A stretch of 64,000 nt of DNA from a virus, in IMG/VR virus record IMGVR_UViG_3300042013_000056, positions 32,001 through 96,000 of that record; one strand, given 5' to 3'. The translations under genes and the position numbers were made by a program. The notes under the pieces are model-generated. The model ran no database searches. It saw only the letters and a list, made by a program, of their open reading frames with translations, and had not been told where the DNA came from. Numbering within the stretch: the stretch's first letter is position 1; each line of letters starts with the position of its first letter. Positions 6,105-24,520 of the stretch are shown here, piece by piece.

Positions 6105-6259
6105 GATCGTAACTCCCGGTAAGGTCCGGGGTAAGTCCCGGTTTGCCTTGCTTGTGGTTTATTCTACACCATGGTTTGATACAGTCAAGGGTTTGATACA
6201 AATATTTTTGAAAATAAAAAAGCCCCACCGACCGGCAGGGCTTGAGGTGTTGCGAAACG

Positions 6260-6529
6260 TTAGAGCGTCACAGTCTTGACTGTGGTTCGCTTCACGGTGC
6301 TGTCATAGTTGTCACACAACCATTGATGCCCCTTTGCAAACGTTTCATTGAAGTGTTCCAGCGTTGCGGCAACCACACCAGCGGGCAACCGTTCGCCTTT
6401 GTTGCCATAAAATTCGGCTTCGTCCTGTTTCAGATAGATCGCGTCTGCAATCACCACACCATTCAAGGTGATATCCGCGCAAGCCGGAATGCCACCGGCA
6501 ACAACTGTATAGACTTGAGGCATGTTCAT
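6260..6529 (-). CDS. Hypothetical protein
   Basis: Co-oriented ORF, AAGGAA upstream. Confidence 0.7.
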   Translation of the reverse strand: MNMPQVYTVVAGGIPACADITLNGVVIADAIYLKQDEAEFYGNKGERLPAGVVAATLEHFNETFAKGHQWLCDNYDSTVKRTTVKTVTL

Positions 6530-6535
6530 AATTCC

Positions 6536-7057
6536 TTATGCGGCCTGTTTCTGTTCAACAGCTACAGCTTTGAAAATCAGTTCACGTCGGCCCGGTCGTT
6601 TAACTTCGTCAACCTTGTAACCCATACGGACCACAAGCCCCGTCGATTCAGCCCAGCGCATTGCGTTGGATACGTGCATAAGTTTCATTTTCAACTTTTT
6701 GCGGGCTTGCTTAACGGTGAATTCTTGTCCGTTCTGTGCGTTGATGAATGTTACCAGACTACGGCGGGTTTTGGTCTGGTTTGCCGAGATTGGGCGACCA
6801 CCCAGAGACTTAGTATTACCGGTTTGAGTCAGTTCAACCACTTTAACCGGGGTTTCTACTGCATCCAGAGCTTTCAGACCGGCTGTAAGTTCTTCTACCA
6901 TTTTCAGGCGGGTAGCTTCACTGTCGTCGTGAATGCGCAGGGTTTCGACTGTGAAACCATCAACACCCGGCACAATGTTGCACATTTCGGCCCAGTTGTC
7001 GCCGTGTAGCTTCTTGGCGGCACGTACAGCGGATGATTTAGCTTTGTAAGTAGTCAT
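6536..7057 (-). CDS. Putative winged-helix DNA-binding protein (paralog of 26439..26900)
   Basis: C-terminal FTVKQARKKL...VSNAM...GLVV...PGRRELIFK; own promoter at about 7093-7125. Confidence 0.55.
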   Translation of the reverse strand: MTTYKAKSSAVRAAKKLHGDNWAEMCNIVPGVDGFTVETLRIHDDSEATRLKMVEELTAGLKALDAVETPVKVVELTQTGNTKSLGGRPISANQTKTRRSLVTFINAQNGQEFTVKQARKKLKMKLMHVSNAMRWAESTGLVVRMGYKVDEVKRPGRRELIFKAVAVEQKQAA

Positions 7058-7151
7058 GTTCGAATTCCTTTATCAAATTGGCTTTCAGTGGTTTGTATCT
7101 TAATCGTTGTTTCTGGTTACGTCAAGGGTTTAATCAAACTATTTTCTATTT

Positions 7152-7550
7152 CTATCCAAGCCCCAAATAAACACCAGACAACACCAACACCCAACACCAG
7201 AAAATTACATAGTGTTTCCGCCGTCGCTTGCGGGTGTGTGGGTCTTCCTGTTCGATAATGTCACACCTATCAGGGTACAGCTCAAAGTCGGCTGATACAG
7301 GCTCACAGACCGGTTTAAACATCGATTCAGGGTCACGGGTCAGTGGGTGATATTCAATCGGCCAACCCATCGCCCGACAATATGACGCCCAAGCCTTGTT
7401 CCGTTTCAGAATTAGAGCGTGCTTTGTATGGGCATAGGTTACCAAATCAATAGCCTTTGCCGATAATGCTTGATCTAATTCAATTTCCTGTTTGTCTATA
7501 TTGTCCAACCGTTTCGCGGCTGGTATTGCCTGAAAACTAAGTTTATCCAT
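7152..7550 (-). CDS. Hypothetical protein with C-terminal membrane anchor
   Basis: RRRRK followed by a hydrophobic tail. Confidence 0.65.
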   Translation of the reverse strand: MDKLSFQAIPAAKRLDNIDKQEIELDQALSAKAIDLVTYAHTKHALILKRNKAWASYCRAMGWPIEYHPLTRDPESMFKPVCEPVSADFELYPDRCDIIEQEDPHTRKRRRKHYVIFWCWVLVLSGVYLGLG

Positions 7551-7650
7551 ACATCACCAGAACCCCCAGAAACGGGGCATACAATAGGATTACAGTAACG
7601 ATACCATAGGTTTTGATACAATGCAACATCAGTTGTTGATAATATTTCAT
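7543..7650 (-). CDS. 35-aa hydrophobic micro-protein
   Basis: AAGGAGG RBS, MKYYQQLMLHCIKTYGIVTVILLYAPFLGVLVMYG, array promoter at about 7680. Confidence 0.65.
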   Translation of the reverse strand: MKYYQQLMLHCIKTYGIVTVILLYAPFLGVLVMYG

Positions 7651-7734
7651 TGATCAGCCTCCTTTTCGTTGATGTGAGTATGATAGAACTATTTCAGGTG
7701 ACTGTCTAGTGGTTTGATACAAATATTTTTAGAT

Positions 7735-7850
7735 AAAAAGAACCCGCCAGATCGGGGAATCATGGCGGGTCAAATGAGGTGTTTCAGGGTTGGTTGTGAT
7801 TAGCCAGTCAACGAACTAACCACAGGGAGCGCACATAGTCCGTATGTGAC
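7735..7850 (-). ncRNA. Candidate small RNA of about 115 nt
   Basis: TTGACA(7884-7879)-N16-TATTAT promoter, two hairpins, intrinsic terminator, no ORF with an RBS. Confidence 0.55.
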
Positions 7851-7932
7851 TGCCGAATAATAAACGATTTACATAAAGTGTCAAATAAACCCGATAAAAG
7901 GCTTGACAGATTGACAGATTGGATCACATCTT

Positions 7933-7959
7933 AAATCAGTGGCAATAAGCCACTGATTT
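7933..7959. terminator. Perfect 11-bp-stem terminator
   Basis: AAATCAGTGGC-AATAA-GCCACTGATTT. Confidence 0.8.
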
Positions 7960-7967
7960 TATAAGAC

Positions 7968-8285
7968 TTATTGGATGCCACCATAACGCCAGCTTTCGAC
8001 TTTCTTGGCGTCCAGCAAGTCGGCAACCGTTCCGCGTGGCTTGTTCTTAGCTGGGGCTTTCCACCCGGCAGACTTCCACAAATTGCCTTCTTGATCCATG
8101 AACCCCCAGCAATAACGGCGGTCGCTTACAGTTCCGTCCTGATTCACGTCCGTGCTAACAAGGCGTGTCCAGACCTTACCCGGTTCAGCAGATAGAAGCT
8201 TTTGACCATGCGGGCCACCGGTAGCGTTCAGAGTGGTGGTTGCGAATTCCAGACCTTCGGCTAGTTGTTTGATCAATTCCGACAT
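7968..8285 (-). CDS. Hypothetical phage protein (WKAPAK-motif family)
   Basis: GFMD..GNLWKSAGWKAPAK..RG; start moved to ATG 8285 below promoter. Confidence 0.7.
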   Translation of the reverse strand: MSELIKQLAEGLEFATTTLNATGGPHGQKLLSAEPGKVWTRLVSTDVNQDGTVSDRRYCWGFMDQEGNLWKSAGWKAPAKNKPRGTVADLLDAKKVESWRYGGIQ

Positions 8286-8361
8286 TTTGTAACCCTCAAT
8301 TCGTTTGGTGTGTTTGTATTCTATCAAACCCCCAGCCGATTGCAAGGGGTTTGATTCAATT

Positions 8362-8736
8362 TTACATATCTTTTTTGCGCTTCACGTCTTGAGCATATCC
8401 ACCGATGTGCAATGCTTCCCGTACTTGCCAGTTACCCAACGCGTAACCACTTTCAGCGGTCATGTAACCGTTTTGAATCAACCACTCGCCCCCGGTAACC
8501 AAATAATGGTTATCATGACCCGGACGCATATCGGCAAAGCCACCCAATTCTTGCCATTCGCCACCAACCAACGCCGACACATAAATTTTGTGGTAGCAGT
8601 TAGTCATAGAATCATACCACCGAACACCTTTGATCGATATTTCTTGAAAGTTGTCGCATTTCGCGGTCAATGCGGCGGTGACCATTTTAGGGCCGTCTTG
8701 AGTTTGAATGCGGTAGTCGATGGTTTTCATGATCAT
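8362..8736 (-). CDS. Hypothetical early protein
   Basis: Own array promoter and AGGAA. Confidence 0.72.
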   Translation of the reverse strand: MIMKTIDYRIQTQDGPKMVTAALTAKCDNFQEISIKGVRWYDSMTNCYHKIYVSALVGGEWQELGGFADMRPGHDNHYLVTGGEWLIQNGYMTAESGYALGNWQVREALHIGGYAQDVKRKKDM

Positions 8737-8807
8737 GTTCCTGTGGTTGGGTGTGGTTGTATTGTAGCGGGGTTGTCGGTTTGATACAACCCCTATTTCG
8801 ATTCTTT

Positions 8808-9251
8808 TTAGTAGCCCCAGCTTTCACGGGCGTAGCGGTCAAGGTCGCCCATCAATTCAGCTTTGGACTTGTACAGGGGGCCAACAGTGCGCGGCATGCC
8901 TTGCGGGTTCAATACGCTGTCATGAATGTCTACCACACGCCACAGGCCGTGGCCTTGATGCCAGTAGCCTAAACCAGCATAACGGGTTTTCATGATTTTA
9001 AACGTACTGGTGATATTTGCAGATGCTGGCACGGTTTCGGCCTTTTCAATTTCATACGTGAACAGGGTTTGCCCGTGGCTACCGCGAAACTCGGCACCGT
9101 CCTTTACATCAAACCAGCTATTAAAGTCGCTGACTTGCAACACGCCGTCATGAACACGAACATCATAATAACGCCCGTCGATATAGATACCGTTCCCGAT
9201 ATTCAAATGGGCGCGGATTTTGCGAGCTGCTGCGTTAGGTGTGAGTATCAT
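8808..9251 (-). CDS. Hypothetical early protein
   Basis: Own array promoter and AAGGAA. Confidence 0.72.
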   Translation of the reverse strand: MILTPNAAARKIRAHLNIGNGIYIDGRYYDVRVHDGVLQVSDFNSWFDVKDGAEFRGSHGQTLFTYEIEKAETVPASANITSTFKIMKTRYAGLGYWHQGHGLWRVVDIHDSVLNPQGMPRTVGPLYKSKAELMGDLDRYARESWGY

Positions 9252-9331
9252 TTTCTAATTCCTTATGTCGGTTGGTGTAGGGTTATTCTATCAAACCACC
9301 CGAAAGAGTCAAGCGGTTTGATGTAATTATT

Positions 9332-9538
9332 TTACTGTTCTTTGATACTGGTAGTGTTGCCGTTCAACATGGCTATAACAAACACCGTGTTTAGATGTTT
9401 GATGATATACCTACGGTGTGCGCCTTTCTCACTTTCCCAGTCCTGCAAGTCCAACACCACACCATAGCGGCAAAGTTCTTTTTTGACGGCTTCCAGTTCG
9501 TTAGCCTGTATCGCTATCAGGATTTGCAATAGTGTCAT
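9332..9538 (-). CDS. Hypothetical early protein
   Basis: Start moved to ATG 9538 after GGGAG; own promoter. Confidence 0.7.
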   Translation of the reverse strand: MTLLQILIAIQANELEAVKKELCRYGVVLDLQDWESEKGAHRRYIIKHLNTVFVIAMLNGNTTSIKEQ

Positions 9539-9609
9539 GTCGATAACTCCCGGTTGGTGTATGGGAATGATAGAACCCCCTGACAATGATGTCAAGGGGT
9601 TTGATAGAA

Positions 9610-9915
9610 TTATTTTGCGTTCAATTTGTCCAGCCGTTGCTGTTGACGGAACGCCGACAATTCTTTTTTCCAACGCTTGCAAAACCATTTGTTATATGTC
9701 TGCAATGCCTTGAACGCAATTTCAAAGTTTGCCGAATCACGCCGCCATTCCGGGCTTGCCTTGACGCTATCCGGGGTTAACCCCATTGGCCCTACCGGGT
9801 ACTTGTTCAAATCATTAGACGCAGCATCACAGGCCGCGTTTAGTTGATCTTGCTTAGCCTTTGCCTGTTCAAAAGACATAAGCGAATTACCGATTTCTTC
9901 TAGGGACATGAACAT
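9610..9915 (-). CDS. Hypothetical early protein (MGLTPD.VK.SPEW motif)
   Basis: Start moved to ATG 9915 after GGGAG; own promoter. Confidence 0.7.
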   Translation of the reverse strand: MFMSLEEIGNSLMSFEQAKAKQDQLNAACDAASNDLNKYPVGPMGLTPDSVKASPEWRRDSANFEIAFKALQTYNKWFCKRWKKELSAFRQQQRLDKLNAK

Positions 9916-9990
9916 TTTGATAACTCCCGGTTGGTGTGGTTGTATTCTATCAAACCCCACGCCGATTGCAAGGGGTTTGATAAATTCTTT

Positions 9991-10296
9991 TTACTTGACC
10001 AGACCCGCCGCCATGCAAGCCTTTGCCCAGTAGCGTTGGGAACGTGCATCCTTGCCGGGGTGAATCGCTTTAATGGTGTGGCTACCGTCCGTGTGTAGCT
10101 CGCCTTCGGTAGACAGCCAATCCGGTGTGCCGGGGTAGCAATTCGACTGTGTGAAGCCTTCGCGGTCGATATAGTCCACCAGTTCGCGGAAACCATAATC
10201 AACATCTTCAAATTCAAAACCGCGTTCATCAGTTTCGCCCGCTTCTATTGCTTCTTGCGACCATTCCTCATACGTTACGGAAATTTTGATACCCAT
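9991..10296 (-). CDS. Hypothetical acidic early protein
   Basis: Own promoter, AGGGG RBS. Confidence 0.72.
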   Translation of the reverse strand: MGIKISVTYEEWSQEAIEAGETDERGFEFEDVDYGFRELVDYIDREGFTQSNCYPGTPDWLSTEGELHTDGSHTIKAIHPGKDARSQRYWAKACMAAGLVK

Positions 10297-10376
10297 GATA
10301 CAAACCCCTGTTTTCGTTGGTGTGCCGGTATTCTATCAAACCGCCTGATAGTGTCAAGCGGTTTGATAAATTCTTT

Positions 10377-10703
10377 TTAGTCCGTCCGCTTGCCGATTGT
10401 TCGGGCGACGATAGCCACAAATTCCTCATACTCGGCCTTTGCAGCCTCATCACACGCCAGCCATTCACCGAAGTTCGGGGATTGGATCATTACGATATCT
10501 TCGCGGCTGTCAACCCCTTTCGGAATCAAATGCTGTTCATAGCTCGCCACACTGCCGACCGAATGAATCCGAAAGATAAACGCCCGGTAACCGAATATAA
10601 TCGATTGGTCAAGCGTATGCATGGTGAACTTGTATTTAAATTTCTTGCCGCCGTTCTTGACCAGTGCGGCAACAAACGCTTTTGTCATTGGATGTTGTTT
10701 CAT
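10377..10703 (-). CDS. Hypothetical early protein
   Basis: Start moved to ATG 10703; own promoter. Confidence 0.7.
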   Translation of the reverse strand: MKQHPMTKAFVAALVKNGGKKFKYKFTMHTLDQSIIFGYRAFIFRIHSVGSVASYEQHLIPKGVDSREDIVMIQSPNFGEWLACDEAAKAEYEEFVAIVARTIGKRTD

Positions 10704-10791
10704 GTTGTAGCCCCTTTCCGGTTGGTGTGTGGTCATTATGGGGCTATATCAAACCCCTGTCAACAGGTTTGATACAAATATTTTGAGCAAC

Positions 10792-10813
10792 AAAAAAGCC
10801 CCGAAGGGCTTTT
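10792..10813 (-). terminator. Intrinsic terminator (UUCG loop)
   Basis: Minus strand AGCCC-UUCG-GGGCU-UUUUU. Confidence 0.82.
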
Positions 10814-11015
10814 AGTTGATACCTTGCAACTCCCGCCAGATGTCGCCCAACCGCTGTTCAACATCTTGAATCGATATGTAACCCTGTAGCTCGCTTTCCC
10901 CTGTAAATTTAGGGCTTGCCAGATACGCCCGGAACGCTTGCAGGCTGTCATCTGCTAGGTTAATGCGGCTGGTAAGGTTGTCTATCTCGACTTGCTTGGC
11001 GTTGACTGTAGGCAT
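10812..11015 (-). CDS. Hypothetical early protein
   Basis: Own promoter, AGGGG RBS. Confidence 0.68.
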   Translation of the reverse strand: MPTVNAKQVEIDNLTSRINLADDSLQAFRAYLASPKFTGESELQGYISIQDVEQRLGDIWRELQGIN

Positions 11016-11094
11016 TTTCAAACCCCTGTTTTGGTTGGTGTGGGGTCATTATGATGCAACATCGAACGCACGTCAAGCGGTTTGATGCAATTAA

Positions 11095-11310
11095 TTAAGC
11101 AGCCATAGCCGCCGCTTCGGCTGCAAAACGCTTTAGACGGGCTTTGCAGTTACGCCACGACCTACGGTCACTAGGCGTTGAACTGGTAAACACTGGTTTA
11201 GTTCCCGGCATGAAAAATTTTAGGTGTTTGCCGTTTGTTTGTTCTATACCCCAACCCAAACCCTTTGCATAGTCCACTAGGTCGCGCATATCACCATTTT
11301 TAATGTTCAT
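11095..11310 (-). CDS. HicA-like (dsRBD-fold) protein, orphan
   Basis: LVDYAKGLGWGIEQTNGKHLKF...STPSD pattern with the conserved His. Confidence 0.65.
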   Translation of the reverse strand: MNIKNGDMRDLVDYAKGLGWGIEQTNGKHLKFFMPGTKPVFTSSTPSDRRSWRNCKARLKRFAAEAAAMAA

Positions 11311-11373
11311 ATCAAACCCTTATGTTTTATTGATAATAGATTGTTGCATTGAAACAAAATAAAGTCAAGCGGT

Positions 11374-11718
11374 TCAAGCGGTTTTGATTTCGTGTATCAG
11401 TTCCAGAACTTGCGGGCATTCTGACAGTTCATCACCTAACCGCAAGTGTTTAAAGTCCTTTGATGCAACCCGGTACAGGTGTCGGAATAATCCGCTGTTG
11501 ATGTAGTCCGGGTGTGAGTATGCAGCAACCACCCGACCCAATTTGCTGCTATGGCTAGCCACAAGCAACACAGCGACCGAACGCCCGTGAACCTGATAGA
11601 CATATCGGTTTGAGCCGTTGAACGTCTTAAACAGCGTTACAGACGGCCCAACCAAATAGCCGGTTTCCTTATCGGTGATGGTTGGGCATTGGTTACAGGG
11701 TGCAAGTAGACTATCCAT
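11374..11718 (-). CDS. Hypothetical protein, weak GNAT-like C-terminal pattern
   Basis: VVAAYSHPDYINSGLFRHLY. Confidence 0.4.
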   Translation of the reverse strand: MDSLLAPCNQCPTITDKETGYLVGPSVTLFKTFNGSNRYVYQVHGRSVAVLLVASHSSKLGRVVAAYSHPDYINSGLFRHLYRVASKDFKHLRLGDELSECPQVLELIHEIKTA

Positions 11719-11734
11719 AACCAACCCCTATCGA

Positions 11735-12148
11735 TTAGACCGATTTGATAATTTCTGCGTTCTTTTCATACCATGCCAACATTTTTTGCAGGGCTTCGGC
11801 TGGTGTCTTGCCTTTGATCTTGCGGAATTTCAAACCAGCGTTACGCAAGTGATGCGACCATGATAACAATTCAATGTCAAATGAATTTGCGACGTTGTGT
11901 TGACTGTTACCATTCAAGTGCATCATGAAACGCATTTGACCGGTTGCATTCAACAGGATACCGCTTGCGCATTCGGATTTGTCCGCGACGTTGTAAAAAT
12001 CAATTACCACATTGTCACCCAAACTTTTGTAAGGGCGGGCTTTTGCCAGAAAGGTCGGGAACAGTTGTTTTATGCCAGTGTTAAAGGCTTCGCAACCTTC
12101 GGCGGCGTTGGCTACTGCATCTTGAATCAATTGGATTTGAGTTTTCAT
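11735..12148 (-). CDS. Hypothetical early protein
   Basis: Own palindromic promoter. Confidence 0.72.
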   Translation of the reverse strand: MKTQIQLIQDAVANAAEGCEAFNTGIKQLFPTFLAKARPYKSLGDNVVIDFYNVADKSECASGILLNATGQMRFMMHLNGNSQHNVANSFDIELLSWSHHLRNAGLKFRKIKGKTPAEALQKMLAWYEKNAEIIKSV

Positions 12149-12225
12149 GTTCCGGCTTCCTGTGGTTGGTATGGGTTAGTGTAGCGGGGTTGTAGGTTTG
12201 ATACAACCCCCTTTAGCAATTTATT

Positions 12226-12546
12226 TTAGTACCGGGTTACTTTGTCCGGGTTGTCTTTAATCCATTGTTGCAACCGGGCCTGACCTTCGGCTTCTGATTC
12301 TTTAATCAGTTCCGACACCTTATGCGGGAACCAATACGCTTCGCAATCCATATAGATAAACCGGTCATACTTCGACAAATCGTTGGTTGTGTCAAACCCG
12401 ATAATTTCACGACCGGGGAAAATAACCCCGTAATCGTTGATGAATGTAACGATGTCACCGACCTTTAGGTCACACCCTACCGGGGCTTCTTGATCCAGTT
12501 TGGCGGCGAATGCTTCGATGTCGCCGTGGCCTGTACGATTTTTCAT
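12226..12546 (-). CDS. Hypothetical early protein (SH3/KOW-like start)
   Basis: LKVGDIVTFINDYG; own promoter. Confidence 0.7.
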   Translation of the reverse strand: MKNRTGHGDIEAFAAKLDQEAPVGCDLKVGDIVTFINDYGVIFPGREIIGFDTTNDLSKYDRFIYMDCEAYWFPHKVSELIKESEAEGQARLQQWIKDNPDKVTRY

Positions 12547-12616
12547 GATTTCGGTTCCTGTGGTTGATGTTGGGTAGTGTAGCGGGGTTGTAGGTTTGAT
12601 ACAACCCCTATTTTGA

Positions 12617-12991
12617 TTATTCGGTGAAATAATCCCGGCTCAAACTGTGCGACCCGAATTCAACGTGTGGAACCTTCAAATCAATGTCATAATCGAACAA
12701 CCCGACACCGTGGCCCATTGCTTGCATGGCTGCATAATGGCCCCATTCTTGCGCCTTGAGTTCGTTGGTAGCGTTGTTGCTTTCGTACAAGCTTGCAACC
12801 GGCATGCCGTGCATCAGTTCGAGCTGAAAAGTCAGGGTATCAGCCGCATGCAACGCCGCCGAATCGATCACAGCGGGCAATTGATCCATGATTTCGCCGT
12901 GCAATGATTGGCCGCAATCGTCTGCCATGTCAGCATAAGCCGAACCGAAAAACGCTAGTGCCATGCCTTTCTTGATTTGTTCTTGAGACAT
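12617..12991 (-). CDS. Hypothetical acidic early protein
   Basis: Start moved to ATG 12991 after AGGAG; own promoter. Confidence 0.72.
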   Translation of the reverse strand: MSQEQIKKGMALAFFGSAYADMADDCGQSLHGEIMDQLPAVIDSAALHAADTLTFQLELMHGMPVASLYESNNATNELKAQEWGHYAAMQAMGHGVGLFDYDIDLKVPHVEFGSHSLSRDYFTE

Positions 12992-13107
12992 TTTTGTAAC
13001 TCCTGATTTGGTTGGTGTGTAGAGATTATGGGCTTGATTGATATGGCTGTCAACAGGTTTGATACAAATATTTTTAGATATGAAAAAGCCCCGGTTAAGG
13101 GGCTTCT

Positions 13108-13305
13108 TTACTTGACAAGCTCTAAATCCGCTTGGTTCCAATACTTGCAGCCGCGCAAATCTTGATCTAACCAAACTTCGCCGTCTTTACCGTAACAGGC
13201 CCGGATATTCGCCTGATGGTTGTCTTCCCGACCATCCGGGCAACCGTCCCAACTTGCCAACACATCCGGCTTTAGTTGTACGGTGTCGCCTTTCTTGAGT
13301 GACAT
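13108..13305 (-). CDS. Small hypothetical protein (SH3-like)
   Basis: LKKGDTVQL. Confidence 0.65.
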   Translation of the reverse strand: MSLKKGDTVQLKPDVLASWDGCPDGREDNHQANIRACYGKDGEVWLDQDLRGCKYWNQADLELVK

Positions 13306-13315
13306 GATTAACCCC

Positions 13316-13567
13316 TTAAACGTCGTTGGTAACCCAATTATCTTTCATGTGGAAAGATTCGCCGTTATCGAAACGCACGCTCAATTCATAACCCGGTTTG
13401 AACGTGTGAGTTACTTCGCCTTTCATGCCAACCGAAAGCTTTTTCAGGAAGCTATCACTTGGATAGTTAGGGGTCACACACGACCGGTTTGAGCTGTGCA
13501 TTGTATCGATGTTGGTTTGGGTTAGAACTACACGATCACCAACTTCGCGATGTACTGGCATGACCAT
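13316..13567 (-). CDS. Small hypothetical protein (SH3-like)
   Basis: EVGDRVVL...GMKGEVT; own promoter. Confidence 0.65.
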   Translation of the reverse strand: MVMPVHREVGDRVVLTQTNIDTMHSSNRSCVTPNYPSDSFLKKLSVGMKGEVTHTFKPGYELSVRFDNGESFHMKDNWVTNDV

Positions 13568-17257: not shown

Positions 17258-17464
17258 TTAAAGTTTATGCAGCTCTGTGCATTCGTATACGTGAACTGTG
17301 CAGCCGTTCGGCAACTGGTAATAGTTCATATTCCAGCGGATTGCATCAAACTCCTTTCCGTCATGTTCCAACAGATACGAGCGTTCATCATTTGAATAAT
17401 GACCATAGCGAAAGCCCGCTGTGGTCACCGTGTTGGATTTCAATTTGATTCGTACACGTTCCAC
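17258..17464 (-). CDS. Hypothetical protein
   Basis: Co-oriented ORF, GAGGG upstream. Confidence 0.62.
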   Translation of the reverse strand: MERVRIKLKSNTVTTAGFRYGHYSNDERSYLLEHDGKEFDAIRWNMNYYQLPNGCTVHVYECTELHKL

Positions 17465-17665
17465 AATACACCCTCAAACAAAACTGTAAATGATTGCGAC
17501 AACACCACACACCAGAATAGCCAGAAACATCCATGTAATAACCGCCGCACCGTCGCGGTCCAATTCTTTTTCCACTTGAAATTCGTTCAATTCGTTCATG
17601 TTGTCACCTTCTTGGTATGATTTGATATAGGGTCATTCTACAGGCTTTTGGGCATAATGCAAGGG

Positions 17666-17887
17666 TTAGATTTGGTCCGGGGTCATATGGCATTCATTCA
17701 AATGTTTAGCCATTTCACCGTGTGTATGACCATGGCGGGCCAGCATCCCATCCGCCAACGATACCAAATGAAGATTAGATACCCCGGTGTTTGCCGGGTC
17801 ATACCCGATAATGTATTGTTCAGAGCCATTTTCAGACCATACACGCCGACCGGGTTTGATATCTGTAGCTTCCCATTCAAATTTCAT
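17666..17887 (-). CDS. Hypothetical protein
   Basis: Start moved to ATG 17887 (MKFEW). Confidence 0.62.
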   Translation of the reverse strand: MKFEWEATDIKPGRRVWSENGSEQYIIGYDPANTGVSNLHLVSLADGMLARHGHTHGEMAKHLNECHMTPDQI

Positions 17888-18116
17888 TTTGAGCCTCGAC
17901 AGGTTTGATAGAGTTGATTGGTTTGATTGGGTTGCCCCAGTCGTCGTGCGTTTCACTGCCCCGATATGGGCTAGCCTTGATTGTGATAACCCGGCGAATT
18001 ACAACACCAGTACCACAACACAGGGCCACTACTGTTAAATGCCGGTCGGATTGTTCCACGTTCCATTCGGCGGCGGTATTCAACCGCAACTCACCTTTAC
18101 AGTTTGGACATTCCAT
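17877..18116 (-). CDS. Small Zn-finger protein
   Basis: CPNC ... CC. Confidence 0.6.
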   Translation of the reverse strand: MECPNCKGELRLNTAAEWNVEQSDRHLTVVALCCGTGVVIRRVITIKASPYRGSETHDDWGNPIKPINSIKPVEAQNEI

Positions 18117-18508
18117 TATTCATTACCCCAGACAGAACGCAAGCAACTAGCCAGCGACGGGAACTTATCACCGTCAAACTTTCCCTTTGTACCCTTGGGA
18201 CGGTAAAAGAATTGATTGTCAATCTGTTTCAGAACGTGGCCGATGGTCTTACCATCCAGCGTAATTGGCTCAACTACCACAAGCTTTGCATATGCCTTGA
18301 TATCAGCTTTCAGCTTACCCATGGTTGGGGCTTTCTTGCGGTCCCCATTGAACGCTACAGCCTGATATTCACGACGGGCGCGCAGGTATTGCACCTTGAA
18401 CACAACACCGCCACAAACGACTTCCACGACGTTCAGGCCGGTGCTAATGATACCCACAGTCAGTTCTGATAGTTCGAGTGGAGTATCCTGCTTTTCGTAA
18501 ATGATCAT
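18116..18508 (-). CDS. Hypothetical basic protein
   Basis: Coupled starts and stops on both sides. Confidence 0.7.
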   Translation of the reverse strand: MIIYEKQDTPLELSELTVGIISTGLNVVEVVCGGVVFKVQYLRARREYQAVAFNGDRKKAPTMGKLKADIKAYAKLVVVEPITLDGKTIGHVLKQIDNQFFYRPKGTKGKFDGDKFPSLASCLRSVWGNE

Positions 18509-18684
18509 TACACAGCCCCTGTATAGGTTGTTAGTTCAGATTCGCGGAATGTACCAGCATCACGGCCAGAATTTCCAAAGGTGCAAGAATAGAATCCAAA
18601 GTCATTAACGCTTTTGATGGTCATCCAAAAAACGCCACCCTTGGCTTGAACCGGGTCACCTTTGGAAAATTTGTTCGCTATCAT
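18508..18684 (-). CDS. DUF2158/YodC-like small SH3-barrel protein (58 aa)
   Basis: Hand-translated FSKGDPVQAKGGVFWMTI...C.F...GTFRESEL; own promoter. Confidence 0.55.
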   Translation of the reverse strand: MIANKFSKGDPVQAKGGVFWMTIKSVNDFGFYSCTFGNSGRDAGTFRESELTTYTGAV

Positions 18685-18759
18685 GATTCAGTTCCTTGTT
18701 TCGGTTGGTGTATGGTCATTCTAGCACGCACACACCAACCGTCAAGGGGTTTGATAGAA

Positions 18760-18939
18760 TTATTTTAGGTGGCGCTCCCAAATGTGAATAATGATACAGC
18801 CGTCCCGCATCTGCATCTTGTACCCGGCCCATTTATCCGACATGAAATTACCGGAAAAATCGTACACAACACCAACCCATTTAGACAGTCTCGCTAAATT
18901 CTTTTGTGCCTTACCAGCCGGGAGCGTGATGGTTCGCAT
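18760..18939 (-). CDS. Small hypothetical protein (59 aa)
   Basis: Hand-translated MRTITLPAGK...; AGGTGA upstream. Confidence 0.55.
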   Translation of the reverse strand: MRTITLPAGKAQKNLARLSKWVGVVYDFSGNFMSDKWAGYKMQMRDGCIIIHIWERHLK

Positions 18940-18950
18940 GGTGTCACCTG

Positions 18951-19214
18951 TTAGGCTTGAACGCCAAAGTCATAGAACAGTTGATAATCGTTCTTTTCAA
19001 CCGCTGCAATTGCTTCAAGAATATACGACTGCATTTGCGTATGATCTTCTTCGCATGTCACCGCTTTAGCCCGAACGCGTGCTACAGCCTTTTCGTCTTT
19101 GGTGTCAGCGGTTGCCAGTTGAAACGACATCATATGATGTTTAACACCTTGACTGTTGATATACGAGATATCTACAAACGCCTTGATAAAGCCGGGGGTA
19201 TGGATCATTGGCAT
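18951..19214 (-). CDS. Hypothetical protein
   Basis: AAGGAG upstream. Confidence 0.68.
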   Translation of the reverse strand: MPMIHTPGFIKAFVDISYINSQGVKHHMMSFQLATADTKDEKAVARVRAKAVTCEEDHTQMQSYILEAIAAVEKNDYQLFYDFGVQA

Positions 19215-19226
19215 AGCGGTAACTCC

Positions 19227-19469
19227 TTATAGATAGTCATTGATGTAGCGGGCAAGCTCAGCCAATATAACGGTTTTTTCAGTGTTGTAGCACTGCATAA
19301 AGTCATTGGCAGAAAAAACGTATACAGCATGATTCAGTGGGTCTGATGGGATTTTGTACACATCCAACCGGATTTTCCGCCCACTTGGCGCAATCATTAC
19401 AGATTCTATAACCTTTTCAGCTTCGCGACCTTCAAGGCATGCGATCTTTTTGATTTCACCGATAGCCAT
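19227..19469 (-). CDS. Hypothetical protein
   Basis: Duplicated leader with AAGGAA. Confidence 0.7.
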   Translation of the reverse strand: MAIGEIKKIACLEGREAEKVIESVMIAPSGRKIRLDVYKIPSDPLNHAVYVFSANDFMQCYNTEKTVILAELARYINDYL

Positions 19470-19527
19470 GATGTTAATTCCTTTTCGGTTGGTTTCTACT
19501 GACTCAGCCCCATTTAAGGGGCTTTGT
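19466..19527. repeat. Duplicated hairpin+leader+RBS unit (second copy 20557..20624)
   Basis: Near-identical about 62 bp, including AGCCCC-ATTTAA-GGGGCT. Confidence 0.85.
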
Positions 19528-19535
19528 CGTTTGGG

Positions 19536-19811
19536 TTATTCCGGGTTGCGGAATCCGTCCGAGTTTTCAGCTTCCAGTTCGGCAAGCGTTTTCAGCTTCG
19601 GTGCCGGGGCGTTGAAATCAATTTTCGTACCACCACAGCGATAATGGGTTACGGTCACTTCAAACCCGCCAGCATCGGGGAACCGTTCTTTAATGATGTT
19701 GAACAGGGCTTGTGCCTCATGTTCGCTAACCGCCGAGCGTGCATCTGTAGCGAACAAGTGACGGCCTTTATAGCTAACGTTGATTTCGTAATGCGATTGG
19801 ATGCCAGCCAT
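19536..19811 (-). CDS. Hypothetical early protein
   Basis: Own promoter, AAGGAA. Confidence 0.72.
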   Translation of the reverse strand: MAGIQSHYEINVSYKGRHLFATDARSAVSEHEAQALFNIIKERFPDAGGFEVTVTHYRCGGTKIDFNAPAPKLKTLAELEAENSDGFRNPE

Positions 19812-19888
19812 GATATCGATTCCTTATTTCAGTTGGTGTAGGGATATTGTAGCGGGGTTGTATGTTTGATACAACCCCTTTGATGAAA

Positions 19889-20143
19889 TTAATTTGGGAA
19901 CATGTAATAGCATGTATCTATGTAATATTCAATCCCATTCGTATCATCATGCACAAGGAAAACTTTGTTGGTGACTAGGCCGTGTTTGATTGCTTCTTGC
20001 TGGCATTCAGTCACCAGCGAATCAACGTAGTGTGTTGCAACCGAATCAGAGCATTCATTGACGGCGCGAATTAGGGTTATTGCATCTTGACGGCAAAGCG
20101 AGTTAACAGCGAATTTGCGGTCGGGGCTGGTCCAGTTCGACAT
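19889..20143 (-). CDS. Hypothetical early protein
   Basis: Own promoter, AAGGAA. Confidence 0.7.
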   Translation of the reverse strand: MSNWTSPDRKFAVNSLCRQDAITLIRAVNECSDSVATHYVDSLVTECQQEAIKHGLVTNKVFLVHDDTNGIEYYIDTCYYMFPN

Positions 20144-20227
20144 TTTGAAATTCCTTGTTTGCGTGTTTCGGTTGGTGTGATTGAATGATAAAACCCCCTG
20201 ACAACCATGTCAAGGGGTTTGATAAAA

Positions 20228-20560
20228 TTATTCGTATCTGTCGTGGATTTTTGCCGCACCGTGCCACGATTCACAACCTGTCATTTTCCGCATCGCATCA
20301 GAGAACCGCGAATCACTGGTTGCCCCGAAGTTCCCGCCGAACATGTGCCAATTCTTGGACGTTGCCGGGTCTTCACACACGATATAGACCACGCCTTTAA
20401 CGGTTGGGTGATTGACCAGCCATGCCGCTGGGGCGTCCTCAGAAGGCTCTAGCGGGCCTTCAACGTTAACCAGCGTTAGACGGCTATACCGTGAAGATAC
20501 ACCGCCGTTAGTGCAATCGTAACCATCAGCGGAACGGTATACAGAGATTAGCAAGCCCAT
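20228..20560 (-). CDS. Conserved phage hypothetical (DCTNGG...MFGGNF..TSDSRF...HDR.E)
   Basis: Recognisable widespread motif set; duplicated leader. Confidence 0.75.
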   Translation of the reverse strand: MGLLISVYRSADGYDCTNGGVSSRYSRLTLVNVEGPLEPSEDAPAAWLVNHPTVKGVVYIVCEDPATSKNWHMFGGNFGATSDSRFSDAMRKMTGCESWHGAAKIHDRYE

Positions 20561-20624
20561 GATGTTAATTCCTTTTCGGTTGGTTGGTGTTTCTACTGAC
20601 TCAGCCCCATTTAAGGGGCTTTGT

Positions 20625-20894
20625 TTAATTCTTACTCAATTTATGCGTGCCTATCTGCACCTTGCCATCTTCAAGGATTTTTACGTCCTTGAGATAATCC
20701 CCGTCGATCTTGACCCATTCATTACCAGCACCGAAACTCATTTGCTTTTCAAGCCGTACCGATATGGGTTGAAATTTAATGCGGTAGACGGTCCCACTAG
20801 GCGCAACCACTTGCATATGCCCCCAGCGATCCGTAGCCCAGCCCAAACCCTCTAAGGCTAATTGCACCACTTCCAAATGAGATTTCTTTTTCAT
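20625..20894 (-). CDS. Hypothetical early protein
   Basis: Own promoter. Confidence 0.7.
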   Translation of the reverse strand: MKKKSHLEVVQLALEGLGWATDRWGHMQVVAPSGTVYRIKFQPISVRLEKQMSFGAGNEWVKIDGDYLKDVKILEDGKVQIGTHKLSKN

Positions 20895-20968
20895 GGTTGT
20901 CTACCTGTTTCGGTTGGTGTATGAGCATTGTATAGGGGTTGTATCAAACCTACAACCCCTATTTCGAT

Positions 20969-21292
20969 TTATTTTTGCTTGCGGTGTGCGTGTGCGACCT
21001 CATTAAAGAACCGCTTAGGGACTTTCTTATATTCTCGCCCATCAGCATCACAGAACCATTCCGGCAGTGTGCCGTTTTCACCGTCGCTCATGTATGCCCA
21101 TGCTCGGCGGTCGTCGTCATCGCGTACCAGAACGATATCCCACCGGCTGCCCTCGGTTGGTTCAGTCTTGGACATTGCCAACGCTTCTTTATACGTCCGT
21201 GAGTGCCAATGCTCTATAACATCATCTTTCGCGAATTCCGGTTGATCGATATCCGATACTTCTTCACAGTCCCACTCATATGCAACAGCCAT
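20969..21292 (-). CDS. Hypothetical acidic protein
   Basis: Co-oriented, AGGGG upstream. Confidence 0.7.
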   Translation of the reverse strand: MAVAYEWDCEEVSDIDQPEFAKDDVIEHWHSRTYKEALAMSKTEPTEGSRWDIVLVRDDDDRRAWAYMSDGENGTLPEWFCDADGREYKKVPKRFFNEVAHAHRKQK

Positions 21293-21295
21293 GAT

Positions 21296-21679
21296 TTAAA
21301 CCCCTTTGATTGCTTGGATTTTGCCATCGGCAAAGTAAACCACGATATTGGACAACAGTTCGCCAATATCATCTTTTGTATTTGGTTCACGTACATAAAA
21401 ATCAATGATAGCCCGCCCATCGTCTGAGAGTTCCACACCTTTAGTGAATTCAGACCATTCAACCGGTGACCACAAATCGGTATCAGACCAGTCGTCAAGG
21501 TCTGCCAACCGAGTGACGCGGGCAATGTTGATATTGTTTTCCACACCTTGAACTTTGATGTTGACACGCTCGCCAACTTCGACTGTTACACGTTTTAGGC
21601 CAACTTCTTTGCGAGCCGCTTCACGTATTTGCTGGCATTCTTTGGTGCTAGGCTTCCAAACATTACCGATGATCGACAT
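21296..21679 (-). CDS. Hypothetical early protein
   Basis: Own promoter, AAGGAA. Confidence 0.72.
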   Translation of the reverse strand: MSIIGNVWKPSTKECQQIREAARKEVGLKRVTVEVGERVNIKVQGVENNINIARVTRLADLDDWSDTDLWSPVEWSEFTKGVELSDDGRAIIDFYVREPNTKDDIGELLSNIVVYFADGKIQAIKGV

Positions 21680-21757
21680 TTCAAAATTCCTTGTTTCGGT
21701 TGGTGTGATAGCAGTATAGCAAAGGGGTTGGTTTGATACAACCCCTATTTGATTAAA

Positions 21758-21976
21758 TTATTCAGCCAGAAACTTAGCATATGCGGCTTCACGTTTCGCC
21801 GTGCATATGTCGCGGGAATCGGTCAATTGAACTTTTTCAGCACAACCAGCGGAATAGCCAGCCTGAAACGCTTTAAAGCCATTCGGTTGGGCTTCTGGAT
21901 TGAATGGGTTTTCTTTATAGAACCCAAGCGAGCCAGCCCTATAAGCGTATTCAAAGATTTCCTTTTTGCTAGCCAT
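21758..21976 (-). CDS. Hypothetical early protein (AY..G...G...NPF...G..AG pattern)
   Basis: Own promoter. Confidence 0.68.
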   Translation of the reverse strand: MASKKEIFEYAYRAGSLGFYKENPFNPEAQPNGFKAFQAGYSAGCAEKVQLTDSRDICTAKREAAYAKFLAE

Positions 21977-22050
21977 TTCGTGAACCCCTGATTTGGTTGG
22001 TGTAGGGATATTGTAGCGGGGTTGTAGGTTTGATACAACCCCTATTTGAT

Positions 22051-22269
22051 TTAAATTTTGTGTGGTGCGAACGTGATACCTTGGGCCTGACCTTCAAATC
22101 CCCGGCAAACCGCTTGGGCCTTGATTGCAGCAGCTTCAGCCAGTTCCAAAGTATCGAACTGCATAGCCAGCTTGACAGAGCCCATGCAAGCGGTTCCCCA
22201 AGTCGGGCACCATGCGTGCAAGTAATCAGAACCAAACTTGCCATACGTGCGTTTTATTACATAAGCCAT
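22051..22269 (-). CDS. Hypothetical early protein
   Basis: Start moved to ATG 22269; own promoter. Confidence 0.68.
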   Translation of the reverse strand: MAYVIKRTYGKFGSDYLHAWCPTWGTACMGSVKLAMQFDTLELAEAAAIKAQAVCRGFEGQAQGITFAPHKI

Positions 22270-22341
22270 GATCAAATCCTTTTCCGTTGGTGTATGAGCA
22301 TTGTATAGGGGTTGTAGGTTTGATACAACCCCTATTTTCAA

Positions 22342-22815
22342 TTATTTGTGTTTGGTCATGGCTTCGGTAAGGTCTGCAATCAGCTTGCGTTGTTGGCCAA
22401 TTTCCCATTCGATTTGGTCAACCACGTACACCGCTACGCCTTGTTCTTTGTTACCGTTGGTGACTTTGCGACCCATTGCCTTGGCTCTATGCAAATCATT
22501 GTAACGGGTGGCGTTTTCGATATTACCAATAACCGCTGTATCGGCCACGTTGTCAAACACAATCGGCATACGACCCGAACCGGTGACAATGATGTAACCT
22601 TTAGGGGCTGTTGCGTTGAACGCTTCCAGTCTAGCTATGTAAGCCTCAGAGTCAGTGATAGCGGTTTTAATGAATTGCAGGGCTTCTGGTTTGATTTGCA
22701 TGGTCTTGGCCTTCTGGTTGATGTGCTTGAGGCACAGGGCGAACGTGGCTGCATAGTTGTCACCGGCTTGAATGATTTCTTTCGTCATCTTGTGGGCTTG
22801 GGCAAATGCGTTCAT
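22342..22815 (-). CDS. Hypothetical early protein
   Basis: Own promoter (67-bp repeat). Confidence 0.72.
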   Translation of the reverse strand: MNAFAQAHKMTKEIIQAGDNYAATFALCLKHINQKAKTMQIKPEALQFIKTAITDSEAYIARLEAFNATAPKGYIIVTGSGRMPIVFDNVADTAVIGNIENATRYNDLHRAKAMGRKVTNGNKEQGVAVYVVDQIEWEIGQQRKLIADLTEAMTKHK

Positions 22816-23039
22816 GTTCGTGTTCCCTGTTTCGGTTGGTGTGTAGAGATTATGGGACTATATCAAACCCCTGTCAACAGGTTTGATACAAATATTTTAA
22901 ATTATTTTCATAGGCAATTGCCATGCCAACACTGATTTGCGGTCGTCAATCCATTTTCTCATATTTTTCGTGGTGCTGTCAACTACAACAAACAAAATAA
23001 AACCCGGCTGATTAGACCGGGTTTGGCATGGTGTTTGAT

Positions 23040-23264
23040 TCAATAGGCAGTGTGGGTTTTCAGTCGTACAAAATGTTTGCCGTTTGGCAGGTCAATAACA
23101 ACTTCGACGCCACCAACGCACAATTGATAGTCACCGTTGATTGTCAGCCAATGCAACGTGCCTTCAAAGTGGCTATCAGTGATAGTCCCGAGGGTTTCGG
23201 TGTCATTGTTAATCATGGCTTTCAGATTCAACAACGCATGATGATTGTAAGAAGTATTAGACAT
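23040..23264 (-). CDS. Hypothetical protein
   Basis: Coupled to upstream ORF; terminator at about 22996-23023. Confidence 0.62.
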   Translation of the reverse strand: MSNTSYNHHALLNLKAMINNDTETLGTITDSHFEGTLHWLTINGDYQLCVGGVEVVIDLPNGKHFVRLKTHTAY

Positions 23265-23650
23265 TACCCACGCCCCCAGATTTCATTATCAGCAATCCCG
23301 AACGCTTGCATAACATCAGCCATCGATGCATCAGGCATGCCCGCCAGTTCCAGAACCGTCGCTCGGATCATATCCCGGCTTTCAGTCATTAACGCGATGT
23401 CTTTATCAGACAGTTTGATATAGCCAATCATGCCCAGCTTTGTATGTGCTTTGATCAGGTCAACCAAACGCGGCTTGAGTTCGTCAGCGGTTTGACGGAT
23501 ATCAACCCGGCTAAACATATGGGATTTGTGGTTAGCCAGTTCATGAGCGGCTTGATCCATATTATCGAACGGTTCGGAAATGAACTTGAGTTCTTCGATG
23601 ATTTCCGAATCGGTTTGGGTAAAGCTACCAGCTATTACGGTGAAAGACAT
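23264..23650 (-). CDS. Hypothetical early protein
   Basis: Own promoter, AGGAG. Confidence 0.72.
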   Translation of the reverse strand: MSFTVIAGSFTQTDSEIIEELKFISEPFDNMDQAAHELANHKSHMFSRVDIRQTADELKPRLVDLIKAHTKLGMIGYIKLSDKDIALMTESRDMIRATVLELAGMPDASMADVMQAFGIADNEIWGRG

Positions 23651-23725
23651 GGTGTAACTCCTGTTTGCGTTTGTGTGATTGAATGATACAACCCCCTGAC
23701 AACATCGTCAAGGAGTTTGATAGAA

Positions 23726-23998
23726 CTATTTCATCCAGTTGTTCATGGTACGAATTGAGATACCACGCGGGCGACTCTGATACTTAAACGAGTATTCCAG
23801 CCATTCCCACGCCTTACCAGCACGAACCATGCCCATTAGGCGTTCAAGCTTACCGATACGGCGGAACACCTTGAGGCTAACAAACTGTGGGCTTTCCCAC
23901 TGATAGCCATCCTCAGAACCCACACGAACAAACCCATGGATAGACAATAGGTGGTCGCGTTCGGCTTCAAGTGCTTTGTAATATGCGGTTTTGGTCAT
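23726..23998 (-). CDS. Hypothetical early protein
   Basis: Own promoter, GGGAG. Confidence 0.7.
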   Translation of the reverse strand: MTKTAYYKALEAERDHLLSIHGFVRVGSEDGYQWESPQFVSLKVFRRIGKLERLMGMVRAGKAWEWLEYSFKYQSRPRGISIRTMNNWMK

Positions 23999-24067
23999 GT
24001 CGATAACTCCCGGTTGGTGATTGAATGATAAAACCCCTTAACCGAGTAGTCAAGGGGTTTGATAGAA

Positions 24068-24445
24068 TTATTCTGCTTTGCGTTCGATATCCCGGAAATA
24101 CCCTTGGGCATCCATCACAGCATATTGATCGCTACCATACCTAGGATCAGTTTCCAGCCACATAGCCGGGTCAAGCTTCCCACCGGCCTTGATATGAGCT
24201 GTAACGCGGTCACAGAGTATCTGAATGGCTTCCTGCGCTTGTTCACGTTCATCAGGAAAGAAAACCATCCCGTCACAATCTTCGCCACCGTCTACGGCTT
24301 TAGTAGAATCGAACTTGACCGAATGCACCCAGCGTTGACCGTTCGGGGCTTCAACCATCACATAGAAGCGTTCGCCTATGTAATCTTCGCCGTCCTCAGT
24401 CACGCCAGCCTTGAAAGCATCCGATCCGATAAAAGCTTCTAACAT
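24068..24445 (-). CDS. Hypothetical acidic early protein
   Basis: Own promoter, GGAGGA. Confidence 0.72.
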   Translation of the reverse strand: MLEAFIGSDAFKAGVTEDGEDYIGERFYVMVEAPNGQRWVHSVKFDSTKAVDGGEDCDGMVFFPDEREQAQEAIQILCDRVTAHIKAGGKLDPAMWLETDPRYGSDQYAVMDAQGYFRDIERKAE

Positions 24446-24520
24446 GGTAAATCCTCCGATTGGTTGAATGCTAGATTAGCACAGCACCAATCGAAGTCAA
24501 GAGGTTTGATACAAATATTT

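Follow-up and report, generated by a model that had tools for sequence, protein, structure and literature searches.

Introduction

Positions 6160 to 24520 of a 64,000-nucleotide stretch of viral DNA (bases 32001-96000 of one phage contig of 182,859 bp and 45% G+C, IMG/VR record IMGVR_UViG_3300042013_000056; the whole stretch is referred to here as the window) are packed with small genes preceded at short intervals by predicted promoters, many of which are overlaid by an inverted repeat. The question raised by this locus is what such palindromes are for. A first-pass annotation had proposed that they serve both as a co-regulated operator set, read by a dimeric repressor or acting as a cruciform switch, and as recombination handles, making the region a gene-cassette array like those built from the promoter early stem-loop (PeSL) units of T4-type phages. 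We find that the promoter-hairpin cassettes are a further example of known PeSL cassettes and do not represent a new regulatory system, and that their hairpins appear to behave as RNA structures of the sense strand, which fits a role as terminator or attenuator and does not fit a dimeric operator or cruciform.

PeSL units have been described from the hyperplastic regions of T4-type phages, namely RB49/phi1, T4/PST and KVP40/nt-1 (Arbiol et al. 2010, PMC2839356; Comeau et al. 2014, PMC4122927). They consist of an AT-rich block, a strong sigma-70-like promoter, a stem-loop that is generally of the form GGGG...CCCC, and a Shine-Dalgarno sequence with its ATG. Five subclasses are distinguished by the position of the stem-loop, which most commonly lies between the -35 and -10 elements or over the -10; the stems have marked G-T pairs, and reporters show both terminator and promoter activity (PMC2839356, PMC4122927). 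Mini-circles arise from crossovers between the -10 and the ATG, insertions or deletions, replacements and displacements are found beside the units, and -35 variants such as TTGYVH occur (PMC2839356, PMC4122927).

Phage and setting

The genome, judged from its proteins, is that of a 183-kb T4-type phage with relatives in the Pseudomonas phages Milchi and Astolliot. A match of 386 bits was obtained to the gp23 capsid family of T4, and a NAMPT protein is 85% identical to its counterparts in these two phages, the records of which annotate rIIA/B, gp32, the gp59 loader and a late-promoter regulator. A homologue of the anti-sigma factor AsiA (57 bits) is encoded outside the window (G000:C1:102868-103089, minus strand). 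The MotA domains PF09114 and PF09158 found no match in this genome, with a T4 positive control at 207 bits, and PF09114 likewise found none in Milchi or in the uncultured relatives G001 and G002. A search of the GenBank phage set for near-identical DNA returned a single 160-bp match, to Milchi; relatives were found through protein search, and G001, G002 and G003 are closer uncultured relatives from IMG/VR. Comparisons described below as covering six genomes refer to this genome, G001-G003, Milchi and Astolliot.

The proteins of the array offer few clues. Ten of them gave no Pfam match above cut-off (one match was sub-threshold), those with PHROGs matches fall in unknown-function families only, and an Rfam search of 5-29 kb gave no match. 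On the strength of its sequence organisation, the region is probably the main hyperplastic early region of a T4-type phage, assembled from PeSL-type cassettes.

Anatomy of the promoter cassettes

Between 6 and 25 kb, the minus strand carries nearly all of the ATG-started open reading frames, and the cassettes are therefore to be read on that strand. Promoters follow the same polarity, with all 23 of the sigma-70 consensus matches of at least 10/12 in 6100-24600 on the minus strand, as are all 25 of the units genome-wide that combine box and leader, which lie at 40-60 kb of the genome. The strand reading of the first-pass annotation was in this respect partly wrong: both of the palindromic promoters that it quoted are present, the one at 10.33 kb as a minus-strand reading and the one at 20.19 kb as a plus-strand reading. 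Its count of about 35 promoters in 18 kb, by comparison, agrees with ours. A pattern scan of 6.0-24.6 kb recovered 32 units in which a predicted promoter is combined with an AT-rich block and with a Shine-Dalgarno sequence and its ATG, and a few extra units with a weak -10 or no gene bring the total to about 35; across scans, the number of cassettes in 6160-24520 ranged from 32 to 38, or about one per 500 bp. In the window, 56 copies of the box TATCAAAC were counted, most of them between 6 and 25 kb, compared with 3.3 +/- 1.8 in shuffled sequence, and the arrangement ATCAAAC-N(4-30)-GTTTGAT occurs seven times against none expected.

A cassette would begin with an UP-like AT-rich block whose A-tract is supplied by the box (T)ATCAAA(C). 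Next come a -35 of sigma-70 type (TTGACA-like or TTGTAT), 16-17 bp of spacer and the -10, and after these the leader ACACCAACC, a Shine-Dalgarno sequence and the ATG that opens a group of one to three small genes, all of unknown function. All classes and all six genomes keep an AAA at about -42 to -40, behind the AT-rich block, which is where E. coli promoters have the proximal UP-element subsite. The C/A-rich, conserved leader is common to all classes and starts, with ACACCAAC, 7 nt after the -10, at what would be the +1 position. In Milchi and Astolliot the leader is CACATCAAA, not ACACCAACC, and the ATCAAA motif stands at the predicted start site, not upstream of the -35.

Two classes of cassette can be recognised. 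Class A, with about 20 units, has the AT-rich block, TATCAAAC, 2-3 nt, a TTGACA-like -35, 16-17 nt and a TAnAAT-like -10, and can be divided further. In subtypes A1 and A3 (about eight units) an inverted GTTTGATA lies within the spacer, which places the -35 within the loop or the inner part of the stem; the box TG of A3 doubles as the extended -10 TG. Subtype A2 (four units) has a distinct palindrome, AAACCCC-TTGACA / TGTCA-GGGGGTTT, followed by TATCAT. Two direct boxes and no hairpin characterise A4 (two units), and A0 (about six units) has the box only, again with no hairpin. Class B, with 13 units, is built as GGGGTTGTA-[TCAAACC or GGTTTGA]-TACAACCCC, 2-3 nt before TACAAT; its -35 is the TTGTAT/G of the 5' arm, its spacer is 17 nt, and its 7-nt centre is found in both orientations, which is equivalent to flipping the whole hairpin.

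These classes show where the initial description of the palindromes was too broad. A TATCAAAC-based palindrome encloses the -35 in about eight of the roughly 35 promoters (A1 and A3), that is in about a quarter of them, and for these the description stands; for the remainder it was over-generalised, with about five promoters having no box and about eight no hairpin. The statement that the promoters often come right after a terminator is not upheld either, a canonical terminator being directly upstream in only about six of the 32 cassettes.

Each sequence-level feature of the PeSL definition is present here, and this match of anatomy supports the identification of a T4 PeSL-type gene-cassette array. 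The same composite unit stands before small ORFans in a hyperplastic region, the stem-loops lie between or over the -35 and -10 and have G-T stem pairs, and the -35 TTGTAT fits the nt-1/KVP40 consensus TTGYVH. Degraded or slipped copies are found, and in relatives the insertions, deletions, replacements and displacements adjoin the units, with switch points between the -10 and the ATG.

The hairpins and their strand

A predicted G/C-cored inverted repeat overlies the promoter core in about two thirds of the cassettes. Representative sense RNA folds range from -14.3 to -20.8 kcal/mol (z -3.6 to -8.7), and the fold is at or below -11 kcal/mol in 22 of 32 units. Pairing in these repeats is biased between the strands. 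Among the non-Watson-Crick pairs of class B stems in the six genomes, collected with symmetric search criteria, 57 are G·U and 7 are A·C, and among unique class B hairpin sequences the corresponding numbers are 31 and 4. For 100 unique promoter hairpins, the sense fold is the stabler in 71 and the antisense fold in 15, with a mean difference in folding free energy (sense minus antisense) of -2.8 kcal/mol (Wilcoxon p = 6e-11). The class A units of this genome have the same sense bias (for example -15.1 vs -8.8), and its class B stems are perfectly Watson-Crick paired, so of equal stability on both strands. The stems also covary, with alternative Watson-Crick pairs at stem positions 4, 7 and 8 (G-C/T-A; T-A/C-G/A-T/G-C) and T·G intermediates between them.

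A second observation relates the hairpins to terminators. In 171 cassettes from the six genomes, the median folding free energy of the core is -6.4 for the 31 that follow a canonical terminator and -15.05 for the other 140 (Mann-Whitney p = 1e-7, Fisher p = 9e-8), a difference of the same direction in 6/6 genomes. Some of the hairpins resemble terminators themselves. That of A2 is followed by UUUUAUCAUU, as in an intrinsic terminator, and those of A1 and A3 fit in part, with a G/C core followed by UUUGAUA and the complementary UAUCAAA upstream.

The 5' arm of each hairpin lies upstream of the unit's own predicted start site, and the hairpin would therefore form only in read-through RNA from the upstream unit. 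On the simplest reading, which is that of the PeSLs, it may there act as a terminator, an attenuator or a 3'-end hairpin, insulating neighbouring units from one another. In A1 to A3, GTTTGATA would give the U-rich tail (and in A3 also the extended -10 TG), with TATCAAAC as the complementary A-tract. We infer that the units have promoter and terminator activity and are expressed early, and the AsiA homologue would disable -35-dependent promoters and so bring about their collective shut-off. Translational gating would require promoter sequence to mask the Shine-Dalgarno sequence when a transcript reads through. It does not hold generally for these units: the Shine-Dalgarno sequence is unpaired with a mean probability of 0.42 behind its real upstream sequence and of 0.40 behind a shuffled one (p = 0.24).

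Operator and antisense readings

Of the alternatives, that of duplex-DNA sites deserves most attention. The boxes and palindromes would then be operator or activator sites for a phage regulator, for example one of the winged-helix family, and the array would be switched together. Two paralogues, one encoded at each end of the array, share a C-terminal domain, preceded by a conserved GRP motif, at 31% identity that models as a winged helix (predicted local distance difference test score 85-92); homologues of the larger are found in 5/5 relatives. In the relatives the N-terminus of these proteins is an Ala/Pro/Lys-rich tail. The best fold matches are all to MarR, ArsR or ROK-type winged-helix regulators, but at weak E-values (3e-3 to 2e-2), and no link from the protein to the sites was seen; Pfam and PDB sequence searches of the candidates gave nothing usable, and an Atlas search gave only weak helix-turn-helix leads. 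The stem GGGGTTGYA/TRCAACCCC is conserved across genomes with only 40-60% identical proteins, and the box variant is specific to the genome (TATCAAAC here, GCATCAAAT in G001-G003), as co-evolution with a factor predicts. AsiA is present and MotA absent (the T4 control being positive), and on this reading class B, in which the -35 is weak and the box has its centre near -28, might form a middle class independent of MotA. A fuller version would have the ATCAAA-type boxes and GGGGTTGYA/TRCAACCCC stems read as duplex by the phage's own winged-helix proteins, giving a MotA-independent switch from early to middle expression; class A would be shut off by AsiA, class B kept on or repressed by the winged-helix factor, and the box sequence would co-evolve with that factor from phage to phage. 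We regard this fuller version as distinctly unlikely.

The geometry of the sites speaks against operators in any form. At least four unrelated palindrome designs are present, the total length of the palindrome varies from 22 to 26 bp between copies within single genomes, and the box copies in the spacer or loop lie about 16, 19 or 26 bp from the upstream box according to subtype. Loop or box may point either way, even where the cassettes are orthologous. Milchi and Astolliot retain the stems, but have unrelated and variable loops (ttacgg, ttctgg and others), without a common motif. Such variable distances and orientations argue against a directional or fixed-geometry protein site, and inverted half-sites of fixed spacing, fixed position and symmetric degeneracy, as would be expected of a dimeric repressor, are not seen. 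The variability of the box copies fits slippage, flipping and homogenisation among cassettes. Furthermore, a duplex operator and a cruciform are both symmetric, so that the strand bias of stems that tolerate G·U and not A·C argues against each of them, and exclusivity with terminators is likewise unexpected for a duplex site. Since an AsiA homologue is encoded, no operator would be needed for collective early shut-off. Taken together, these observations do not bear out the repressor or cruciform switch first proposed for the array, and operator or activator sites are an unlikely explanation of the palindromes. An IHF site (WATCAANNNNTTR) was also considered, by sequence inspection only; it fits just the two units with a 2-nt gap between box and -35, most units having a 3-nt gap, and class B does not fit.

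It may instead be that the hairpins act mainly on the opposite strand, as intrinsic terminators against antisense (plus-strand) transcription with the UP block providing the U-tail. Seven plus-strand terminator calls coincide with class B units (for example 12584-12608, 16389-15, 20932-62 and 22018-42), and the perfectly paired class B stems of this genome are as stable on the plus strand as on the minus strand. The G·U pairs of the relatives and of class A, however, become A·C on the plus strand, where the folds are weaker by the mean difference given above, and the array has neither plus-strand genes nor any plus-strand promoter match of at least 10/12 pointing into it. We therefore hold a mainly antisense function to be very unlikely and prefer the insulation of sense-strand units.

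Probable exchange of cassettes

The proposal that the repeats serve as recombination handles fared better, being supported by swaps of promoter subtype, by shuffled gene order and by the homology-block ends that fall in cassettes. The gene at 8285 has orthologues of 95% and 90% amino-acid identity in G001 and G002, and its promoter is of type A3 here, of the direct-box type in G001 and of class B in G002, with a leader common to all three from ACACCAAACGAAT onward. Genes at 22815 and 10703 likewise have swapped promoter subtypes with the same leader, the switch of subtype falling between the -10 and the conserved leader. Gene order is shuffled between relatives. A block of three to four genes at 6260-7650 (35, 132, 173 and 89 aa) lies upstream of a conserved 270-aa gene here and downstream of it in G001-G003, and is split in Milchi and Astolliot.

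Breakpoints were observed to cluster at the cassettes. When homology blocks (high-scoring segment pairs) are compared between Milchi and Astolliot, 10/22 block ends lie within 60 nt of a -10 (3.5 +/- 1.7 at random, P = 0.0005), and between G001 and G002 the number is 18/28 (6.6 +/- 2.2 at random, P < 0.0005). Internal repeats, of up to 81 nt, are confined to cassettes, and within this genome cassettes that precede unrelated genes are 98-100% identical over 47-72 nt. The 67-bp identity noted earlier, between 16745-16811 and 22828-22894, is exact. In a suggestive comparison of gene junctions with G001, cassette junctions were adjacent in 4 cases and broken in 11, and tight junctions adjacent in 4 and broken in 1, although these numbers are small and confounded by the damage to genes that breaking a tight junction causes. 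The 30-80 bp of near-identical sequence shared by the cassettes would provide patches of homology, by way of which genes and promoter halves could be exchanged and the cassettes homogenised within a genome by concerted evolution. This breakpoint evidence is of the same kind as that in the PeSL papers and does not tell active recombination at the cassettes apart from selection that keeps genes intact.

The clustering of breakpoints, the flipping of whole hairpins at orthologous sites and the near-identity of cassettes in front of unrelated genes could also be accounted for if the inverted repeats acted as DNA, as extruded hairpins or cruciforms or as targets of recombination proteins, specific for structure or for sequence, that drive exchange, with regulation secondary; such a DNA-level role for GGGG...CCCC stems appears as speculation in PMC2839356, where it is also noted that T4-type general recombination needs just short homology. 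We consider this most improbable: with loops of 7-13 nt and G·T mismatches a cruciform would be less readily extruded, the asymmetry between strands suggests that the molecule concerned is single-stranded and of sense polarity, those switch points that are best resolved fall between -10 and leader and not in the stems, and no recombinase was identified. The nick-associated motif of the Milchi paper was set aside as it concerns a different phage; promoters are not analysed in that paper.

Several points weigh against our reading of the array as PeSL-type cassettes insulated by sense-strand hairpins, and need to be considered with it. Promoter strength, start sites, timing and termination are all predicted from sequence. 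Class B has no U-rich tail on the sense strand, its only T-tail being on the plus strand and derived from the AT-rich block, and a consensus scan rates the class B hairpins terminator-like on the plus strand only; on the sense strand, these hairpins could be at most a weak attenuator or a 3'-end stabiliser. The excess of G·U over A·C is partly confounded, in that the 5' arm is G/T-rich, carries the -35 and is more constrained, and counts over six related genomes are not independent of one another. The conservation of loop and box within a genome would be accounted for only by recent amplification or gene conversion. Finally, almost all of the intergenic DNA of the array is cassette, and breakpoints in intergenic DNA are expected in any case.

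Comparison with known systems

Whilst the likeness to PeSLs is close, the array differs from published examples in a number of ways. The clade is that of Pseudomonas-type T4-like phages, comprising the Milchi/Astolliot group and uncultured relatives, and the density is very high, with about 35 units in 18 kb, all on one strand. Many of the -35 elements are themselves the loop or 5' arm of a hairpin. A lineage-specific box recurs upstream, in the spacer or in the loop, and a fixed C/A-rich leader runs from the predicted +1. Promoter and terminator activity is, moreover, predicted for the units here.

Rho-independent terminators, including bidirectional ones in which A-tract and U-tract are complementary, share with these hairpins the G/C-rich stem and following UUUUAUCAUU of A2 and the G/C core with UUUGAUA, and UAUCAAA upstream, of A1 and A3, and the hairpins stand in at junctions without a canonical terminator. 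They differ in that class B has no sense U-tail, that the loops here carry the -35 hexamer, and that their tail is at the same time the spacer or -10 of the promoter that follows. The MotA/AsiA middle promoters of T4, with a MotA box at -30, resemble class B in its weak -35 and its conserved motif near -28, and the phage has an AsiA gene. The search for a MotA gene in this genome was negative (the T4 control being positive), there is no TGCTT box at -30, and the motif here stands in both orientations and is not shared by Milchi and Astolliot, so that MotA-type middle promoters were rejected.

The array opens no new mechanism. Dense and well preserved, it extends PeSL-type architecture to little-studied T4-like phages from Pseudomonas and from plant or soil samples, and strand-biased pairing, covariation and terminator exclusivity together make a case, at the level of sequence, for palindromes as RNA insulators and not operators. 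The map of predicted early promoters, start sites and unit borders should aid genome annotation and help in choosing small early genes, which are likely host-takeover or anti-defence factors, for functional tests.

Feature catalogue and minor observations

Table 1. Promoter cassettes and flanking genes of the array. Positions are those of the window; energies are folding free energies.
Position	Strand	Feature	Context
6160-24520	-	hyperplastic early-gene array	about 50 small genes, about 35 promoter cassettes
6161-6188	-	A4, TTGACT-16-TAGAAT, two direct TATCAAACC boxes, no hairpin	canonical terminator 6220-6243 just upstream
6536-7057	-	173-aa protein, C-terminal winged-helix domain after GRP motif, candidate DNA-binding	3' end of array
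7680-7708	-	A0, TAGACA-17-TATCAT, upstream box, no hairpin	terminator upstream
8318-8345	-	A3, ATCAAACCCC-TTGCAA-...-GGGGTTTGA-TAGAAT	
8761-8789	-	class B hairpin, GGGGTTGT-atcaaaccg-ACAACCCC, TACAAT	
9285-9312	-	A3, stem G·U pair on sense strand only; -18.5 sense, -10.2 antisense	
9567-9595	-	A2, AAACCCCTTGACA-tcat-TGTCAGGGGGTT then CTATCAT; terminator-like hairpin over -35 and -10	
9944-9971	-	A3, TTGCAA-16-TAGAAT within ATCAAACCCC...GGGGTTTGAT palindrome	
10330-10357	-	A3, quoted in first-pass annotation; sense RNA hairpin -19.0 kcal/mol, z -8.7	
10735-10763	-	A1, TTGACA-17-CATAAT, ATCAAACC-tgttgaca-GGGGTTTGAT	canonical terminator 10794-10813 upstream
11048-11076	-	A0, GCATCAAAC box, TTGACG-17-CATAAT, weak structure	
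12178-12206	-	class B promoter-hairpin, TACACT -10	
12576-12604	-	class B promoter-hairpin, TACACT -10	
13025-13053	-	A0 (degenerate A1, second box decayed)	terminator upstream
13613-13640	-	A0, TTGACG-16-TAGAAT, box, no hairpin	
14243-14270	-	A4, two direct boxes	terminator upstream
14928-14955	-	degenerate class B, loop as GTTTGAT	
15462-15490	-	class B, flipped loop GGTTTGA	
15788-15816	-	class B, flipped loop GTTTG	
16069-16097	-	class B, loop CAAAC	
16382-16410	-	class B, loop TCAAACC, TATAAT -10	
16745-16811	-	A1 cassette, 67 bp identical to 22828-22894	flanking genes unrelated
16923-16951	-	A3-like variant, TATCAAAGG-TTGCAT-...-GGTTTGATA, 17-nt spacer, TATACT -10	directly after strong terminator 16980-17012
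18718-18745	-	A0, TTGACG-16-TAGAAT	
19846-19874	-	class B promoter-hairpin	
20185-20213	-	A2, quoted in first-pass annotation; sense hairpin -20.8 kcal/mol, z -5.6, then UUUUAUCAUU	
20927-20955	-	class B, flipped loop GGTTTGA	
21713-21741	-	class B variant, 3' arm shortened	
22010-22038	-	class B promoter-hairpin; -14.3 kcal/mol, z -4.9	
22300-22328	-	class B promoter-hairpin	
22828-22894	-	A1 cassette, twin of 16745-16811	
23683-23711	-	A2; sense -17.5, antisense -8.8 kcal/mol	
24025-24053	-	A2 promoter	
24473-24500	-	A0, TTGACT-16-TAATCT, box	most upstream TATCAAAC cassette of the array as first delimited
26439-26900	-	153-aa winged-helix paralogue	just upstream of array

Some features in and around the array fall outside the cassette pattern. 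Two promoter-like sites on the minus strand have neither a TATCAAAC box nor a hairpin: one at 17224-17255 (TTGACA...TATAGG) and one at 17635-17662 (TTGCAT-16-TAGAAT with TG). A second repeated intergenic unit, at 19466-19527 and 20557-20624, is without a sigma-70 promoter; its two copies have the hairpin GCCCCTTAAATGGGGC (36 nt identical), which is terminator-like on the plus strand only, and the same Shine-Dalgarno region, aaggaattaacatcATG, before two different genes.

Beyond the array, in 28000-64000, ATCAAAC is about 4- to 5-fold above the expectation from base composition, even inside coding regions, with 16 minus-strand and 12 plus-strand matches against about three expected per strand, and this excess may be a codon or dipeptide effect. 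Within the array, the promoter at 16923-16951 serves about 95 nt with only a 24-codon open reading frame, running into the next cassette, and the minus-strand interval 16820-16951 may be a small RNA or micro-open-reading-frame unit.

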